Positions 1,827 to 8,111 of a stretch of DNA of 8,111 nt are shown piece after piece. The notes under the pieces are model-generated. The model worked only from the letters and a program-made list of their open reading frames with translations, was not told the origin of the DNA and did no database searches. The stretch is from Allobaculum fili (GTDB taxonomy: Bacteria > Bacillota_I > Bacilli_A > Erysipelotrichales > Erysipelotrichaceae). Each line of letters opens with the position of its first letter. Position 1 is the stretch's first letter. The stretch spans positions 1 to 8,111 of the forward strand of contig NZ_JAHDSX010000068.1 in NCBI RefSeq assembly GCF_020969955.1. Reading direction: 5' to 3'. A program made the position numbers and the translations under genes.

Positions 1827-1856
1827 GCCCAAACGCAGAAGTTTGTATGGAAAGAA

Positions 1857-1926
1857 ATTCAGGAAATGAAATTCAGGAAATGAAATTCAGGAAAAGAGAT
1901 TCAGGAAAAGAGATTCAGGAAAGGAA
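1857..1926. repeat. Head-to-tail tandem array, 5 copies of a 14-bp unit (ATTCAGGAAAnnnn)
   Basis: Unit starts at 1857, 1871, 1885, 1899 and 1913, an exact 14-nt period. Copies 1-2 are ATTCAGGAAATGAA, copies 3-4 are ATTCAGGAAAAGAG, and copy 5 is ATTCAGGAAAGGAA. Copy 5 supplies the SD-like AGGAAAGGAAAG just before the ATG at 1933. Confidence 0.97.
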
Positions 1927-1932
1927 AGCCAA

Positions 1933-3279
1933 ATGAGTGACCACAGAAAAACATCCCGCCGCCCGCATAGAAATGTGTCCCGACAGGACGAAAAAAGAGA
2001 AGACGTAAAGCCAAAAAAGAAACCCGTCGAAAAGGAGGGAGAAAAGGCAGCTCGATCCTCACGACAGACTAGACCGGAGACGAATGCGAAAACGAAATCC
2101 TGCCCGAAAAACGAAACCAGAAATCAGGAGAAATCTGAGGGCAATCCAGAAAAGCGAAACGCAGCATCTTCCGCAGTTAGACCTGGCTCTGAGGCGACAG
2201 CCGCTTCGCCTACGGTGCAGGATCAGGTGATCGATAAGCTGCACGAAAAGATTCAAAACCGTCATACCAAAAAGAGAGTCCGTCAGGAGATCAGCAACGA
2301 AAACTGCATGCTCATGGTCTGCCTGCAAAACCCCGGACTGAGTCCGATGCAGATGGTTGAACGGGTGAATACGTATTACGGAACGATGGTTCGCTACGAT
2401 GACGTCCTGGAGTTTTTCCGGGTGCAGAAAATCAATCGGCCAGAAGTTCGCATCGCGATTTTTACGCAGGCAAAACAGAGCGCATCGCTTCTTGAACAGG
2501 CTATGAAAAACGATTTGTCCGCTCTCAATCAGTTCGAAGAAGAAATGAAAAGCCGTTCGAAAGAATTTGGCATTCATCGACAGTTCTTCTCTCGCATCCT
2601 GCTGACGACCTTCTTCCAGAACAATCCAGCCTTTCATAAATATGGCGATGAAGAAGATGTCGCCCTGATGGGCAATACGCTGCAGTTTTATACCCTGCTG
2701 GATTTGATCGATTCCATTCGACAGGCCATCGAAAATCAGGAAGAGGTCGAAAGCGCAGAAGAAAAAACGCTGAAAACCGTACCGGTTCGCGAACTGGAAA
2801 AAGCCAGCCAGAGAATTCGCGAGCTGGAAAGCGCGCTCGAGAGAACCGGCTATCTTCTTTCCGATTTGCAGGATGAATTCGACGCCCAGCTCGAACAGAA
2901 CAAGATTCGGGAAATCGTCGAGTTTTTCTCGCAGCTCAATTCGGAAAAATACGGCTTTTTGCTGGATGAACTGCTGGCCCTGCAAAAAGGCGTCAGCCGT
3001 CTTCGTAAGCAGAAGTACGAAACGCCGCCCGAAATCAGCGGCGTTCTGATCCTCGTTCGAAAACTGATCCAGTTTGTTCAGGACAGTCACATTAATCCGA
3101 TGTTCCGCCTCGATCAGGTGCTCGAAATTACCGCATCTCAGGCCGAGGAAATGGACTACGAAGGCGATCCGTTTCTCGACAATACGATGCTACGGAAAGT
3201 CCAGGTGCTTTCCCCCGGATGGATTTATCAGGATAAGGAAATTCAGATTTCAAGACCAAAAGTGAGGGAAATGAAATGA
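1933..3279 (+). CDS. Hypothetical protein with a GrpE-like C-terminal half. Putative dedicated nucleotide-exchange/adaptor partner of the downstream Hsp70-like ATPase
   Basis: 448-aa ORF with an SD-like purine tract upstream; its stop overlaps the next start (ATGA at 3276-3279). aa 1-120 are K/R/E/S/P-rich low complexity. aa ~283-360 are heptad-like helix (RELEKASQRIRELESALER...DLQDEFDAQLEQNK...EKYGFLLDELLALQKG; compare GrpE AEFENyRkR...EKf..eLLPV.D.L.RA). The C-terminus VQVLSPGWIYQDKEIQISRPKV (nt 3211-3264 cover SPGW...PKV) matches the GrpE beta-domain pattern V..v.qkGY.l..r.iRPa.V. Coding status is confident; the functional call was made by eye. Confidence 0.8.
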   Translation: MSDHRKTSRRPHRNVSRQDEKREDVKPKKKPVEKEGEKAARSSRQTRPETNAKTKSCPKNETRNQEKSEGNPEKRNAASSAVRPGSEATAASPTVQDQVIDKLHEKIQNRHTKKRVRQEISNENCMLMVCLQNPGLSPMQMVERVNTYYGTMVRYDDVLEFFRVQKINRPEVRIAIFTQAKQSASLLEQAMKNDLSALNQFEEEMKSRSKEFGIHRQFFSRILLTTFFQNNPAFHKYGDEEDVALMGNTLQFYTLLDLIDSIRQAIENQEEVESAEEKTLKTVPVRELEKASQRIRELESALERTGYLLSDLQDEFDAQLEQNKIREIVEFFSQLNSEKYGFLLDELLALQKGVSRLRKQKYETPPEISGVLILVRKLIQFVQDSHINPMFRLDQVLEITASQAEEMDYEGDPFLDNTMLRKVQVLSPGWIYQDKEIQISRPKVREMK

Positions 3280-6242
3280 CAAATCAGGCGAATGAACTTT
3301 GTGTCGGCATCGATCTGGGTACGACCAACTCTGTAATTGCGTTTACCAATACGCGCCCAAACGGCGATCTCGTCAGCCGGGTCTTCTCGGCCAGACGAAG
3401 CAACGATGTGTATTATGTGGCCGGTTCCGGGCAGTCGGTTTCCACCGTTCTGGAACCGACGCTGCCCAGCGTTGTGTACTATTCGATGGAAAGCGGCTAT
3501 CAGCCAATAGTCGGCAACTTTGCCCGTCATCAGTATGCGATTCGTCCGCATCTGGTGGCGCGTTCCATCAAAAGCCAGATGGGACAGCCCAGAGTCACCG
3601 GGCTTTCTCCGGATGTTCCGGATGAGACGCCGGCTAAAATTTCCAGCCGGATTCTCAAGCATCTGATCGCGGATATGTCCCGCAAATTCCGCACGCCGAT
3701 CGAAGAAGCGATTATTACCGTTCCGGCTAGCTTTGATGCCATCATGTGCGAAGCCACACGAGAAGCCGCAAGGCTCGCTGGACTTCGGATTTATCAGGAA
3801 GACGGCAGTGAAATGCCGATTCTGCTCTCGGAGCCCAACGCGGTGATTTACGATCTCATCAACCAGATTCGAAACGGGGAAGTACCCTCCTCGCTTCTCG
3901 ATGTTTCTTCGAAAAAGCGCGTTCTGGTCTTTGATCTGGGCGGCGGCACGCTGGATGTTTCCCTGCATGAAATTGAGCAGGATGCGCAAAGCGGTTCGCT
4001 GATGGTGGATGAAGTCGCCACCAACCGCTACACCCGCCTGGGCGGCGATGATTTTGATCGTCTTATTGCGGACGCGATGTATCAGCGTCTCTATACGCAG
4101 TATCACAAGCATCCGGAAATCCAGAATAAAATTGTGCAGCTGAAAGAGCAGATTTATCCGCAGCTGCTTGATAAGGCGGAAGGCTTAAAGCTTTCCGTGA
4201 GCATGGCGCAGGAAGATGTGCTGGGCAGCGGCTGGGGCGATGATGAGGAAGAGGATCTGTATCCGGTCGGCGGCCGAATCAGCACCCTGGGCTACGCGTA
4301 TGATGATTCCTTCACCAGGGAAGAAATAGAAGAAATCCTTTCTCCGCTTATGGGAAAGGATCTGACGATCGATCAGTATCAGAATATGGATACGATCGAA
4401 AATACGAAAAATATAATTTACCCCATTCTGGATGTTTTAAACAAAGCGTCCAGAGATACAGAAGGACCGGTTCCGGTCGATGCAGTCGTGCTGAATGGCG
4501 GCATGTCCAAGTTTTATCTGATCGAATCCCGTCTGGAAGAGTTTTTCGGCTTTAAGCCGATTACCGCAGTGGATCCCGATCAGTCGGTCGCCCGCGGTGC
4601 CGCGATTTATCATTATCTGCTGAAGCACAATCAGATCGCGAAGGGAAAAGGCCAGGTCGAACAGCTGCAGGAAGAAGGACTCGATCGAAAGGAAACGCTC
4701 GGATCCAATCCAGCCGATCCATCGGGTTCCAATGGCTTCGGAGCTTCTGCTGATTCTGAAAATGTGCAGGACGTTTCAAATATGACCTGGACAAATTCTG
4801 GCTCTTCGTCCACAGGTCAAAGCCTGAACGCTTCGGCTGGGTCAGAGCGGACTGCGGGTTTTCGGATTCGCCAGACCAGCATTCTCAATGAGAGTCTGTA
4901 TTTGCAGGGGCAGAATGACATTCATCGAAAAATCATTGAAGCCGGGACAAAGCTTCCGCATGAATCCGCTGTTTTAAACGGATTCATGATTCGAGCCGGT
5001 CAGAACAAGATCGCCATTCCGATTGAACATCGAAGCTACGATGGTTCGTATCGAATCATCGCCAACGGCGTCGTGAATCTGAACACGGTGTATGAGCAGA
5101 ATTTGCACGTGCGTCTGCAGATGAATCTTTCCAGCTCAAAAATCCTTTCCCTTCGTGCCTGGATTGTCGAAAATTCAGACAGCGAGGACGTGCTGGAAGA
5201 AGTTTCAGCACAGCTTTCCGTCTCTGGCGTAGGCCGTTCGGAACCGAAGGGGGCCCCGAAAATGCTTCCAAGTCTGATTTTCCAGAACACCCCAAGAAAA
5301 GTATCGACGGGCAATATGCAGGGAACAGGAACGGTGGATGTTTCCCGGCTTCTTCGAAACATGGAACGGGCTCTGGAATCTATGGATCGAGTGACCCATC
5401 CTGTACAGCGCGGAGAAAAAGTGAAAGAAGCCGCGCGGATCGGCAATCAGATTGCATCCTGCGCCAATAAGAAGGAAGCTGCATTTCCAGTTTTGGCCCT
5501 TCTGAAAAACACGACCAACGGTTTTCTGCGTGAACGGCTGTTCATTATCGCACGAAAGCTTGCTCCGTTCTGGACCGAACGGCAGACCGGCGAACTGGTG
5601 AAGATTGCCAAAGTTTACCTGACCAGTTCTCAATCGTATGGCCCAAAAACACTCAATCGCAATGGAGCGAATATTGAAGCCATTCATACGATCAGCGCAT
5701 GCGGCAAACCGAAGGATGCGCTGGATATTCTGGGAATGGGCTACGAACAGCAGTATCGCAATCCTCTGCTTAACCTTTGCGGTAAGCAGCAGGTCGCCAT
5801 CGACTGGATCAGCCGCTGCTTCTTAGAAGATGCGGATGCGGTATTCCTTCGCAAGCCCTGCAAGATCAGCGAAAGCACGCGTGCTCTGGGCAATGCGCTG
5901 CGCTTAAGTTCCGGACAGCGTGTAGCCATGTCTTCCCGAGACTTTTATATGGAAAAGCTCATCGCTCTGCTGCAGTCCGGATCGCTGTTTGACTTTGAAG
6001 TCGACAGCTGTCTGGTTGCGCTGGGCAGTATCGGCGATCAGCGCTTTGCGGACAATACGGTGGACGAAAAAATGCTCGAACGGGCACGCCGCTGCATTTC
6101 CAGAGTTCCGGACATTTATATCGACGTCCTCGCCACGCGTTTTGACCGCGCCAGAGAAGTCGTTGACATGCTTCTTTCCGGTCAGAAACTGGAGGCGGAT
6201 CAGGAAGCGTATCTTCTGGTTATGCTGGAAGGAAACGACTAG
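3276..6242 (+). CDS. Atypical Hsp70-family ATPase (988 aa): DnaK-like NBD, low-complexity insert, SBD-beta-like region and HEAT-like helical C-terminal domain
   Basis: GAGGGA SD 7 nt upstream of the ATG. Hsp70 motifs in canonical order: GIDLGTTNS (aa 11-19, nt 3306-3332), TLPSVVYY, IITVPASFD, LSEPNAV, VLVFDLGGGTLDVSL (DLGGGTLD at nt 3933-3956), LGGDDFD, VVLNGGMSKFYLIESRLEEFFG, DPDQSVARGAAIY. aa ~451-528 are S/G/N/Q-rich. aa ~529-650 resemble the DnaK linker plus SBD-beta (SILNESLYLQG; IIEAGTKLPHESAV; LHVRLQMNLSSSKILSLRAW). aa ~691-988 are helical with HEAT-like signatures (AIHTISACGKPKDALDIL; RALGNALRLSS; VALGSIGDQR at nt 6015-6044). Confidence 0.95.
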   Translation: MTNQANELCVGIDLGTTNSVIAFTNTRPNGDLVSRVFSARRSNDVYYVAGSGQSVSTVLEPTLPSVVYYSMESGYQPIVGNFARHQYAIRPHLVARSIKSQMGQPRVTGLSPDVPDETPAKISSRILKHLIADMSRKFRTPIEEAIITVPASFDAIMCEATREAARLAGLRIYQEDGSEMPILLSEPNAVIYDLINQIRNGEVPSSLLDVSSKKRVLVFDLGGGTLDVSLHEIEQDAQSGSLMVDEVATNRYTRLGGDDFDRLIADAMYQRLYTQYHKHPEIQNKIVQLKEQIYPQLLDKAEGLKLSVSMAQEDVLGSGWGDDEEEDLYPVGGRISTLGYAYDDSFTREEIEEILSPLMGKDLTIDQYQNMDTIENTKNIIYPILDVLNKASRDTEGPVPVDAVVLNGGMSKFYLIESRLEEFFGFKPITAVDPDQSVARGAAIYHYLLKHNQIAKGKGQVEQLQEEGLDRKETLGSNPADPSGSNGFGASADSENVQDVSNMTWTNSGSSSTGQSLNASAGSERTAGFRIRQTSILNESLYLQGQNDIHRKIIEAGTKLPHESAVLNGFMIRAGQNKIAIPIEHRSYDGSYRIIANGVVNLNTVYEQNLHVRLQMNLSSSKILSLRAWIVENSDSEDVLEEVSAQLSVSGVGRSEPKGAPKMLPSLIFQNTPRKVSTGNMQGTGTVDVSRLLRNMERALESMDRVTHPVQRGEKVKEAARIGNQIASCANKKEAAFPVLALLKNTTNGFLRERLFIIARKLAPFWTERQTGELVKIAKVYLTSSQSYGPKTLNRNGANIEAIHTISACGKPKDALDILGMGYEQQYRNPLLNLCGKQQVAIDWISRCFLEDADAVFLRKPCKISESTRALGNALRLSSGQRVAMSSRDFYMEKLIALLQSGSLFDFEVDSCLVALGSIGDQRFADNTVDEKMLERARRCISRVPDIYIDVLATRFDRAREVVDMLLSGQKLEADQEAYLLVMLEGND

Positions 6243-6555: not shown

Positions 6556-7131
6556 ATGGAAAAACTGTATGCCAGTCCCGCTTTTCAAAAAATCGCCATT
6601 GTTCTGATGAAAGTGATCGAAATTCTTTACTGGATCGGATCGATCGGCATGCTGCTTCTCATGCTTTACGGTCTGTTCAATCCAAGTGCTCTGCCTGAGC
6701 TTGCTGCAGGCCTTCGATCCTCCGGTCAGGATCTTGTGATCGGTAGCTACTCGCTCGAAATGAATACCGATACGGCTGCGTTGGCAAACCAGGATCTTGT
6801 TCTGTTTCTGTTTGCGTGCATGCTGATGATGACCATGATCGCGATGATTTTTCGCAATCTCTATCTGATCTTCCGGCGGTCCGAATCCGGTACGCCGTTT
6901 GATTCGGATTCCATTCGCATGATGGGCGAAATTGGGATTTTCTCGATTCTGATTCCCGTTATCGGTCTGCTCTTCAGCGTCATTTTGCGCATCCTTCATT
7001 TCTTTACTTCCGGTACAGCGGTCATGACGGTGTACATGGACGGTATCATTCTTGGCATCATCGTCTTCTTCATTGCCGGCTTCTTTGTTCGAGGCCATCA
7101 GCTTGAAGAAGATGTAGACGGACTGATTTAG
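6556..7131 (+). CDS. DUF2975-type integral membrane protein (4 predicted TM helices)
   Basis: Strong SD (ACAGGAGGAA) upstream. Four hydrophobic segments: IAIVLMKVIEILYWIGSIGMLLLMLYGLF, LVLFLFACMLMMTMIAMIF, IGIFSILIPVIGLLFSVIL, GIILGIIVFFIAGFF. A 'GTPFDSDSIRMMGEIG' loop between TM2 and TM3 is typical of DUF2975. The gene sits immediately upstream of a YozG-type HTH gene, which is the usual pairing. Confidence 0.85.
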   Translation: MEKLYASPAFQKIAIVLMKVIEILYWIGSIGMLLLMLYGLFNPSALPELAAGLRSSGQDLVIGSYSLEMNTDTAALANQDLVLFLFACMLMMTMIAMIFRNLYLIFRRSESGTPFDSDSIRMMGEIGIFSILIPVIGLLFSVILRILHFFTSGTAVMTVYMDGIILGIIVFFIAGFFVRGHQLEEDVDGLI

Positions 7132-7178: not shown

Positions 7179-7427
7179 ATGGGAAAAATCATTCTTCATC
7201 TTGACCGGGTGATGCTCGAGAGGCATATGAGCCTGAATGAACTTGCCAGCCAGGTCGGCATTACCAACGTCAACTTATCCAAAATCAAAAACAATAAAGT
7301 CAATGCGATTCGCTTCAGCACACTCGAAGGGATTTGCAGAGCGCTGAACTGTACGCCCGGCGATCTTCTCGAATACGTACCCGATGAATCTGACGAAGCG
7401 AAACCCAAAGAGATATCGGAAGAGTAA
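7179..7427 (+). CDS. XRE-family helix-turn-helix transcriptional regulator, YozG-like (COG3655 type)
   Basis: 82 aa. LDRVMLERHMSLNELASQVGITNVNLSKIKNNKVNAIRFSTLEGICRALNCTPGDLLEY is the characteristic YozG-family pattern (HTH followed by 'aiRfsTLe.iC.aL.C.PGDlLey'). Acidic C-terminal tail. Confidence 0.9.
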   Translation: MGKIILHLDRVMLERHMSLNELASQVGITNVNLSKIKNNKVNAIRFSTLEGICRALNCTPGDLLEYVPDESDEAKPKEISEE

Positions 7428-7693: not shown

Positions 7694-8111
7694 GTGCTTG
7701 ATATGTGCATGATAATTTTCGAAAAAGCCGGTAATGGGGGTGAGATATCCCCATTATTCGGTGGATAAGTCCGTTTTTTCCGAATTTTGGGCGCACTTAT
7801 CCCAGGGATTTTCCGAAAGCTTAAAAATTCGCTGGATGTTTGACAGAAAGATCGTAACGGCCGCCTGCAGTTTCATTGAATTCAGCCCGCCTCCGCTCGC
7901 CTTACCGTATCCATAGTTCTGTTTAAGCTCGGCATTTTTCGCTTCGATTTTATAACGCTCATGCATCAGTTCCTGGTATTCTTCTGTCTCCATGAACGCC
8001 ATCTGCTCAAGGTGAATATCGCTTTTGATTTTGACGGAGTAGCTTTTTGATTTTGCTCCTTCTTTGTAGCACCCTTCTTTGAGCGGACAGTGTTTACAGC
8101 GCTCTACATCG
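7694..8111 (-). mobile_element. Partial insertion sequence (IS1182/IS5-like). The inner boundary is not determinable from this window
   Basis: Inferred from the transposase fragment. The other IS end is not in the window, so the terminal inverted repeat cannot be identified. The boundary is placed arbitrarily just outside the 7653-7693 hairpin and could lie anywhere between ~7450 and 7753. Confidence 0.35.
7754..8111 (-). CDS. IS1182/IS5-like DDE transposase, C-terminal part (N-terminus beyond the window edge)
   Basis: The minus-strand frame is open from the window edge: DVERCKHCPLKEGCYKEGAKSKSYSVKIKSDIHLEQMAFMETEEYQELMHERYKIEAKNAELKQNYGYGKASGGGLNSMKLQAAVTIFLSNIQRIFKL. The CxxCPL..C cluster followed by Y..R..IE..n.elK...G...a...GL......Q......N+.RI is the typical C-terminus of IS1182-family (DDE_Tnp_1_6-like) transposases. 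The listed ORF 7754-8002 is only the Met-initiated tail of this frame. Confidence 0.85.
   Translation of the reverse strand, partial: DVERCKHCPLKEGCYKEGAKSKSYSVKIKSDIHLEQMAFMETEEYQELMHERYKIEAKNAELKQNYGYGKASGGGLNSMKLQAAVTIFLSNIQRIFKLSENPWDKCAQNSEKTDLSTE

Follow-up and report, generated by a model that had tools for sequence, protein, structure and literature searches.

Organization of the locus

Here we analyze an 8,111-nucleotide (nt) stretch of Allobaculum fili DNA (contig NZ_JAHDSX010000068.1, hereafter the window), which carries three co-directional genes ending in a gene for an Hsp70-family protein. Gene 1 encodes a metallo-β-lactamase (MBL)-fold protein of the β-CASP nuclease type, gene 2 a protein with a probable GrpE-like half, and gene 3, the open reading frame (ORF) 3276..6242 on the plus strand, an Hsp70 of 988 amino acids (aa) in which a helical solenoid is predicted to stand where other Hsp70s have their lid. 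The stop codon of gene 2 (1933..3279) overlaps the start codon of gene 3 in a 4-nt ATGA. Gene 3 had been the subject of a preliminary description, made from the sequence alone, to which we refer where our results bear on it; coordinates are given in Table 1.

An Hsp70 ATPase domain with intact motifs

The N-terminal part of the gene 3 product is a nucleotide-binding domain (NBD) of the Hsp70 type. The Pfam model HSP70 (PF00012) matches the protein with an E-value of 4e-35 (121.6 bits at a cut-off of 20.6), and the family profile aligns with residues 4–382 of Escherichia coli DnaK with an hhalign probability of 99.9% (E 7.9e-33). The sequence, Pfam, and hhalign together confirm that ORF 3276–6242 contains intact ATPase motifs at the places quoted in the preliminary description: GIDLGTTNS (aa 11–19), LSEPNAV (aa 184–190), DLGGGTLD (aa 220–227), NGGMSKF (aa 407–413), and DPDQSVARGAA (aa 433–443). 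They are conserved at 80–100% in 119 homologues, GIDLGTTNS at 100%. The equivalents of DnaK residues K70, E171, D194, T199, and D201 are retained at 90–100% in the family; that of K70 is the conserved K99 ("SIKSQMG"). When compared with DnaK by hhalign, the domain has 22 extra residues, distributed over three gaps within aa 26–59, in good agreement with the insertion of about 20 aa previously placed at aa 31–55; in addition, 21 aa are deleted from subdomain IB, and 8, 14, and 18 aa are inserted at other places.

Approximately 117 Hsp70 sequences from the PDB match the protein, all of them only over aa ~9–313 and 362–447. The NCBIfam models of HscA and DnaK match at 1e-35 to 1e-41, with scores far from those demanded of equivalogs, namely, 122.7 bits vs. 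648 and 119.7 vs. 822.55 for DnaK (NF001413 and TIGR02350, respectively), and 134.9 bits vs. 708.55 and 141 vs. 620 for HscA (TIGR01991 and NF003520, respectively). Since all curated equivalog cut-offs are missed, four- to six-fold, the protein is by this measure an Hsp70, but not DnaK, HscA, or YegD. By the scores of its best NCBIfam matches, it thus lies outside the characterized Hsp70 clades, as the preliminary description requires. The PHROG model phrog_22570 (unknown function, 682 positions) aligns in one stretch with aa 6–635 (3276–5180) at an E-value of 3.3e-56; therefore, some phages appear to encode Hsp70-like proteins, with the profile reaching through the β domain described below.

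Flexible tethers, a predicted β domain, and a predicted solenoid in place of the lid

Unlike the NBD, aa 450–988 are not recognized by any of the sequence libraries used (Pfam, NCBIfam, PDB sequences). The region starts with aa 451–534, which are rich in S, G, N, Q, and A (13, 11, 7, 7, and 7 of 84 residues, respectively). A variable segment between the NBD and the linker is present in every family member, with lengths from 27 to 105 aa (median 51) and with flanks conserved across the family (YLHKYEEMQDDM... and ...AIQWG). The segment of this copy comprises 88 aa, which is among the longest, and has two copy-specific stretches, at aa 451–460 and 511–530. Because every member of the family has a variable segment there, it is a flexible tether common to the whole family, expanded in this copy, rather than a unique insertion: the S/G/N/Q-rich composition reported in the preliminary description stands, while the label "insert" has to be dropped.

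Just ahead of the β domain, the motif ILN(D/E)xLYLG is invariant in the family (SILNESLYLQG at aa 535–545 of this copy). Judged by eye rather than from a scored alignment, it corresponds to LLLDVTPLSLG, the interdomain linker of DnaK.

The structure of aa 525–988 was predicted with AlphaFold2 from an alignment of 46 sequences, with a mean predicted local distance difference test (pLDDT) of 85.8 and a predicted template-modeling score (pTM) of 0.67; aa 525–533, at the end of the tether, have a pLDDT <50. Between aa 541 and 649, eight strands are predicted with pLDDT 79–94, and their order matches that of strands β1–β8 of DnaK. In a Foldseek comparison of this C-terminal model with the PDB, the top 23 matches are all substrate-binding domains (SBDs) of the Hsp70 family (DnaK, HscA, mortalin, BiP, Hsp70-x, and Sse1/Hsp110) with a probability of 1.00 and E-values from 1e-4 to 5e-3. 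PDB entries consisting of the SBD-β only superpose at a root-mean-square deviation of 4–7 Å over 113–139 columns. With high confidence, aa 536–650 are predicted to form an Hsp70-type SBD-β sandwich, as had been proposed for aa ~545–650 from a pairing with DnaK made by eye, the strand order of which is reproduced by the model. Sequence-level support for this domain is limited to one Hsp70-like model, the above-mentioned PHROG profile that aligns through aa 635.

Strand β8 and the first helix of the solenoid are separated by about 38 disordered residues, in agreement with the second flexible stretch noticed earlier at aa 651–690; aa 651–682 have a pLDDT <50 and low occupancy in the family alignment. 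Then follow fifteen short helices of 8–20 residues (aa 689–985), mostly with pLDDT >90; a long helix B is absent. Foldseek matches of the helical part are importin α/β, IntS4, STAG1, a proteasome 19S entry, and designed repeats (E 0.005–0.05), and IntS4 (7sn8_D) has the highest query-normalized TM-score (TMq 0.38) among the 50 listed matches of the C-terminal model. According to the model, a conventional SBD-α lid directly after β8 is absent, and the solenoid is in the lid's place. The view that aa 691–988 are not a conventional lid therefore holds, and the model is compatible with a HEAT-like solenoid replacing it, whereas the A.ALG.IGD signature, from which HEAT repeats had been recognized, has no statistical support. 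No Pfam HEAT or ARM model matches the solenoid (the best match, U3snoRNP10, has an E-value of 0.011, below the cut-off), and comparison of its profile with itself by hhalign revealed no internal repeat (best off-diagonal P 0.09). The ARM/HEAT-like assignment thus refers to the predicted fold only.

When 1.84 billion representatives were searched with phmmer for the C-terminal 458 aa, 107 proteins were retrieved, all from the same family. As all long ones among them are proteins of ~890–975 aa with the match at the C-terminus, the β-plus-solenoid module is confined to this single architecture among these representatives.

The β-CASP nuclease

The best PDB matches of the gene 1 product in a phmmer search are IntS11 (7sn8_K, 8.7e-25) and CPSF73 (1.4e-23), followed by Ysh1, archaeal CPSF, TTHA0252, and the type VII CRISPR nuclease Cas14; the NCBIfam model aCPSF1 matches at 4.5e-19. 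The alignment with PDB proteins reaches β-CASP motifs B and C. The motifs LD.G, ISHAH.DH, AGHIPGA, YTGD, LH.D, and VH, comprising MBL motifs 1–4 and the histidines of β-CASP motifs B and C, are each at least 90% conserved in 62 orthologues; the metal ligands are among the conserved residues. To judge from these motifs and relatives, the protein is probably an active, compact β-CASP nuclease, and its most likely substrate is RNA. The nearest relatives of this nuclease cut RNA.

One and the same cleavage module, that of Integrator, contains both IntS11, the best PDB match of the nuclease, and IntS4, the match of the C-terminal model with the top TMq. This coincidence probably reflects generic similarity of solenoids; it suggests a lead for docking only.

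The probable GrpE-like protein

Homologues of the gene 2 product are 355–365 aa long and begin at about aa 90–99 of the ORF in the window. The frame is open from ATG 1933, which GGAAAGGAAAG precedes. The K/E/R/P-rich part encoded by 1933–2226 may be a disordered tail; alternatively, this stretch may be non-coding, with a GTG start at 2227. The N-terminal tail of GrpE contacts the SBD of DnaK, and the extension recalls it.

In the AlphaFold2 model of gene 2 (pLDDT 86.2), an N-terminal helical domain is followed by a helix of 53 residues, two more helices, and a small β domain. A long helix, helices, and a small β domain also make up GrpE (structure 1DKG), from which the gene 2 protein differs by the extra N-terminal helical domain of ~180 aa. 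A Foldseek search with this model gave nothing significant, the only match with a probability >0.5 being GrpE bound to the DnaK NBD (1dkg_A; E 0.2, probability 0.63). The Pfam model GrpE (PF01025) matches 9 of the 41 gene 2 family members, with a best E-value of 0.0015 and model positions 8–154 of 165 covered. A GrpE profile was made of 16 sequences, with 15 diverse genes from plasmid and chromid records. The C-terminal half of gene 2 aligns with it over 138 collinear columns (GrpE 37–187) at an hhalign P of 0.0017, and the alignment ends with SPGWIYKDKEIQ against QKGYTLNGRTIR. Among 31 controls, the reversed profile gave P 0.023 over 29 columns, and the thirty column-shuffled profiles gave P of at least 0.028. 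The gene 2 profile retrieved no GrpE from PDB sequences at E ≤10. On balance, homology of the GrpE type is probable for the C-terminal half of gene 2.

Conservation and distribution of the cassette

A word-indexed search identified full-length relatives of the Hsp70 of ~920–990 aa and ~40% identity in metagenome-assembled genomes (MAGs) of Lachnospiraceae and Selenomonadales, where they carry only the annotation "Hsp70 family protein." In metagenome and genome contigs, their genes are always preceded by an MBL gene of ~380 aa and an unannotated gene of ~360 aa. Scanning of one genome per GTDB species yielded 68 loci, including those of Lachnospiraceae, the cultured Lachnoanaerobaculum saburreum and L. 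orale, relatives of Epulopiscium, Phascolarctobacterium, Megamonas, Pectinatus, Synergistaceae, Spirochaetales, and one Riflebacteria MAG.

Among these 68 genome loci and 9 metagenome loci, the order nuclease – gene 2 – Hsp70 is observed in all that extend far enough; loci broken by a contig end were excluded from this count. Across the loci, the reading frames of the cassette overlap or lie a few bases apart, in keeping with translational coupling, and the pairwise-distance matrices of the three proteins correlate with r of 0.93–0.94. With the gene order invariant and the divergence in step, the three genes appear to be one self-contained module. All-against-all clustering of flanking ORFs revealed no further conserved neighbor beyond synteny within close relatives, and in particular no conserved extra J-protein, GTPase, or second nuclease gene.

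The constraint differs between the parts of the module: the mean pairwise identity is 70% for the NBD, 61% for the SBD-β, 50% for gene 2, 49% for the nuclease, and 42% for the solenoid. Strong constraint on the SBD-β (61% vs. 42% for the solenoid) is compatible with one fixed ligand.

Some genomes contain more than one copy. The Pectinatus MAG061 carries two cassettes (L055 and L064) with identities of 47% for the Hsp70, 42% for the nuclease, and 31% for gene 2, which by their divergence appear to be old paralogues. On the Lachnospiraceae contig CAJUSJ010000045.1 (L048/L049), two cassettes lie ~5.5 kb apart and have 77% identity over the overlapping part. In yet another locus (L074, 70–8795), the C-terminal part of an Hsp70–solenoid gene is directly followed by another nuclease and gene 2 pair. 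This second pair is followed not by an Hsp70 gene but by genes for a 414-aa unknown protein and a kinase–STAND–TPR protein of >1100 aa.

Possible function of the module

In our assessment, with a probability of roughly 55%, the Hsp70–solenoid protein is the ATP-driven subunit of a three-gene module with the nuclease and the GrpE-like factor, and gates or scaffolds the nuclease. That the catalytic motifs are intact, the docking linker is retained, and the SBD-β is strongly conserved argues for a working Hsp70 allosteric cycle, and a probable exchange factor encoded next to it argues for real nucleotide turnover. By analogy with HscA and IscU, the protein would be a client-dedicated Hsp70. ATP binding and hydrolysis in the NBD would switch the affinity of the SBD-β for a specific partner segment between low and high, and the gene 2 protein, as a private nucleotide-exchange factor of the GrpE type, would reset the cycle. 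The solenoid, replacing the lid, would serve as a docking platform, most plausibly for the nuclease or else for the substrate of the nuclease; HEAT scaffolds dock CPSF73 and IntS11. As a result, ATP would gate the activation, assembly, or targeting of a metallo-nuclease, which most likely cuts RNA.

A more specific version of this reading is possible, if doubtful. The cassette may be a machine of a kind not recognized before, a chaperone-gated ribonuclease, in which the Hsp70 cycle and the private GrpE-like factor control a CPSF73/IntS11-type endonuclease via the fused HEAT-like scaffold. It would then be a bacterial, chaperone-powered counterpart of the eukaryotic symplekin/IntS4–nuclease modules, used by host-associated anaerobes for a novel pathway of RNA surveillance or a novel class of immunity.

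Several observations weigh against a nuclease controlled by an Hsp70 cycle. At the sequence level, these profile searches show no similarity of the β domain to Hsp70 SBDs: its family profile finds nothing in E. coli DnaK (hhalign) or among all PDB sequences (hmmsearch, E ≤10), and its consensus finds nothing in Pfam. The solenoid matches importins about as well as it does IntS4. The GrpE assignment stays under every curated threshold, with all Pfam scores <25.8 bits, a Foldseek E-value of 0.2, and an hhalign probability of 15%. The cassette lacks a gene for a J-domain protein that could trigger hydrolysis. Finally, the acidic β-CASP motif A is not evident in the 62 orthologues, where the aligned position reads C-x-L-H, and the choice of RNA over DNA as the substrate is judged from the nearest relatives alone.

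An anti-phage function of the abortive-infection type, with the Hsp70–solenoid protein sensing a phage protein or nucleic acid and unleashing the nuclease, is in our view unlikely, though several features of the cassette favor it. It is an autonomous module with a nuclease as the effector, it occurs in many unrelated neighborhoods and is patchily distributed over at least four phyla, and it is present as divergent paralogues in one MAG and twice on one contig. The window contains a transposase fragment 1.5 kb downstream of the cassette, and both Hsp70–HEAT and Hsp70–GrpE combinations have published precedents in conflict systems (PMC11090510; PMC7159879). The genomic context, however, lends it no support. 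The flanks vary by lineage and consist mostly of housekeeping genes, tRNA synthetase genes among them; examples are ProS, DNA polymerase III α, and YajQ; a MacB-type transporter and SerS; HisS, RecU, and pseudouridine synthases; or riboflavin genes. The 129 nearest neighbors in 48 non-redundant loci represent 161 Pfam families, the commonest being ABC transporters (6), and according to Pfam and PADLOC include only about one restriction–modification pair, one Old-like protein, and one or two WYL proteins.

The three proteins themselves have no significant match in PADLOC-DB 2.0: the top entry, PDC-M61B, aligns with 73 residues of the NBD (E 2e-4), gene 2 has no hits, and gene 1 has none with E ≤0.01. 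The C-terminal region of the Hsp70, and with it the cassette, was not found in the plasmid, phage, and IMG/VR viral-contig collections. One protein (P0105) recurs in identical form in 154 indexed data blocks, with the same chromosomal context on the contigs that were read, and in two Lachnoanaerobaculum species the downstream synteny is common to both. Such stable chromosomal contexts fit a conserved role in RNA processing or in quality control and surveillance somewhat better than anti-phage defense.

In another scenario, the solenoid acts on its own ATPase, either as an oversized lid over the SBD-β or as an ARM-type exchange factor in cis, and the nuclease is a client or a co-expressed enzyme. 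The solenoid does occupy the position of the lid in the chain, and the pTM of the β-plus-solenoid model suggests some defined mutual arrangement of the two parts. Further, ARM-repeat exchange factors of eukaryotic Hsp70s, namely, HspBP1, Fes1, and Sil1, all acting in trans, are well established. Still, we regard this scenario as improbable, given the disordered tether of ~38 residues between the β domain and the solenoid, the absence of HspBP1, Sil1, and Fes1 among the top 50 Foldseek matches, and the separate, probable GrpE-like exchange factor that is already encoded by the cassette.

There is likewise little to recommend a divergent, general stress Hsp70 paralogue with its own GrpE, the MBL gene being either unrelated or coding for a hydrolase of a small molecule such as a cyclic nucleotide. 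Intactness of the ATPase, the linker motif, and the SBD-β is what would be expected of it, and pre-computed Pfam labels on orthologues of the MBL protein include Anti-Pycsar_Apyc1. On the other hand, the triad is invariant over phyla and has coupled reading frames, the lid is missing, and a search allowing 3 mismatches revealed no CIRCE heat-shock operator in the window. Moreover, β-CASP RNA endonucleases are the best matches of the MBL protein by about 10 orders of magnitude, and motifs B and C are conserved. The preliminary description had favored a specialized over a housekeeping chaperone, and that opinion gains strength from the invariant operon with a β-CASP nuclease and a probable GrpE-like protein.

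Other features of the window

In this locus, the conserved start of gene 2 is unusually far from gene 1 (~240–530 nt, usually ~10–30 nt in other loci). A tandem repeat with the unit AAAGAAATTCAGGA is situated in the gap. Scans of the window for promoters and terminators gave results not above the shuffled expectation, and Rfam had no matches in the window.

Downstream of the cassette, 6556–7131 encodes a DUF2975-like multi-pass membrane protein (weak Pfam match, E 0.01), followed at 7179–7427 by a Cro/C1-type regulator of the HTH_26 family (E 3e-24). This pair was not seen at other loci and is unrelated to the cassette. An 82-aa ORF at 7754–8002 on the minus strand resembles DDE_Tnp_1_6 transposases (E 2.9e-6) at their C-terminal end only and thus appears to be a transposase remnant near the contig end.

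Table 1. Coordinates of the cassette and its parts in the window.
Feature	Position	Strand	Evidence or remark
Gene 1: MBL-fold nuclease of β-CASP type (CPSF73/IntS11-like), 400 aa	494..1696	+	phmmer, NCBIfam, motifs
Tandem repeat of 14 nt, 5.5 copies, inside the operon, before gene 2	1851..1927		Tandem Repeats Finder score 119
Gene 2: N-terminal extension, 98 aa, K/E/R-rich	1933..2226	+	copy-specific when compared with homologues
Gene 2: core with N-terminal helical domain and probable GrpE-like half	2227..3279	+
Gene 3, aa 1–450: Hsp70 nucleotide-binding domain	3276..4625	+	catalytic motifs intact
Gene 3, aa 451–534: compositionally biased variable tether, NBD to interdomain linker	4626..4877	+
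Gene 3, aa 535–650: linker motif ILN(D/E)-x-LYL and predicted eight-stranded SBD-β-like domain	4878..5225	+
Gene 3, aa 651–688: second flexible tether	5226..5339	+	low pLDDT, low occupancy in the family alignment
Gene 3, aa 689–988 and stop codon: predicted 15-helix α-solenoid (ARM/HEAT-like fold)	5340..6242	+	lid position

Relation to known systems

The combination of Hsp70 with HEAT-like repeats as such is already known. Bell et al. (2024; PMC11090510) described computationally the proteins CnuD and CnuCD of type III CoCoNuT systems, which are related to McrBC, as containing Hsp70 NBD and SBD together with HEAT-like repeats. These proteins occur with McrB-like GTPases, their Walker-A-like motifs are degenerate, and RNA binding has been proposed for them. 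Compared by published description only, CnuD and the gene 3 protein have the same domain order, reside in operons with nucleases, and are predicted to act on or near RNA. The partners and the ATPase motifs differ: CnuD is encoded with CnuB, a McrB-like GTPase, and CnuC, a DUF2357 protein, instead of a β-CASP nuclease and a GrpE-like protein, and its Walker-A-like motif is degenerate, whereas GIDLGTTNS is fully conserved here. In the Pfam census of the 129 flanking proteins, McrB and DUF2357 are both missing from the 25 listed families.

It is highly improbable that the Hsp70–solenoid protein is, as has been proposed for CnuD, an ATP-binding and essentially non-hydrolyzing RNA-binding module, for although the domain order and the RNase-type nuclease partner would suit this idea, CnuD has degenerate Walker-A-like motifs (PMC11090510), whereas every catalytic motif is 90–100% conserved here, and a nucleotide-exchange factor would be pointless without turnover. 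Pairs of Hsp70 and GrpE, for their part, occur in GTPase-centered conflict systems (PMC7159879).

The cassette resembles the DnaK–GrpE(–DnaJ) system in the fold and motifs of the NBD, the hydrophobic linker with its aspartate, the SBD-β, and the co-encoded partner of the GrpE type, and differs from it by the lack of a lid and of a J-protein in the operon, by the tether of 27–105 aa, and by one deletion and four insertions in the NBD. With HscA–HscB–IscU, it shares the idea that an Hsp70 may serve a single co-encoded client, and HscA is also the best-scoring NCBIfam family (141 bits). In contrast, HscA retains a lid, albeit a shortened one, depends on the J-protein HscB, and works without GrpE, and iron–sulfur genes are not found here.

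The CPSF73–CPSF100–symplekin and IntS11–IntS9–IntS4 complexes also pair a β-CASP nuclease with a HEAT-type solenoid. In the present case, the match of the solenoid is generic, a second, inactive β-CASP subunit is absent, and the solenoid is fused to an Hsp70 ATPase. Hsp110 and Grp170, classified as "DnaK derivates" (PMC13580251), are similar in having an Hsp70 chassis with a remodeled SBD and acidic or low-complexity insertions, and Sse1 is among the Foldseek matches. Hsp110, however, keeps a helical bundle of the lid type, acts as an exchange factor itself, is eukaryotic, and has no nuclease partner. We found no paper on a cassette of an MBL/β-CASP protein, a GrpE-like protein, and an Hsp70–solenoid protein in a literature search that left most subscription journals outside its coverage; the closest papers were those on CoCoNuT and ternary conflict systems.

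Although few proteins have been studied as well as Hsp70s, many bacterial "DnaK derivates" with altered C-termini are, according to a recent review, uncharacterized (PMC13580251, 2026). Within this little-understood group, the family described here offers a clean and testable case, an Hsp70 with intact motifs in which the lid has apparently been exchanged for a solenoid. As this lidless Hsp70 is always part of an operon that also encodes a nuclease and a probable exchange factor of the GrpE type, our analysis points to an undescribed chaperone-controlled nuclease module in anaerobes of the gut, rumen, and oral cavity. The carriers include abundant human gut, oral, and rumen taxa (Phascolarctobacterium, Lachnospiraceae, Megamonas, Lachnoanaerobaculum), and two of them are cultured strains from type collections, which makes experiments feasible. 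If the coupling is real, a nuclease would have come under the control of the Hsp70 allosteric cycle, the few bacterial β-CASP enzymes on record would be joined by an ATP-gated one, and the related, uncharacterized CnuD proteins would acquire a functional handle.

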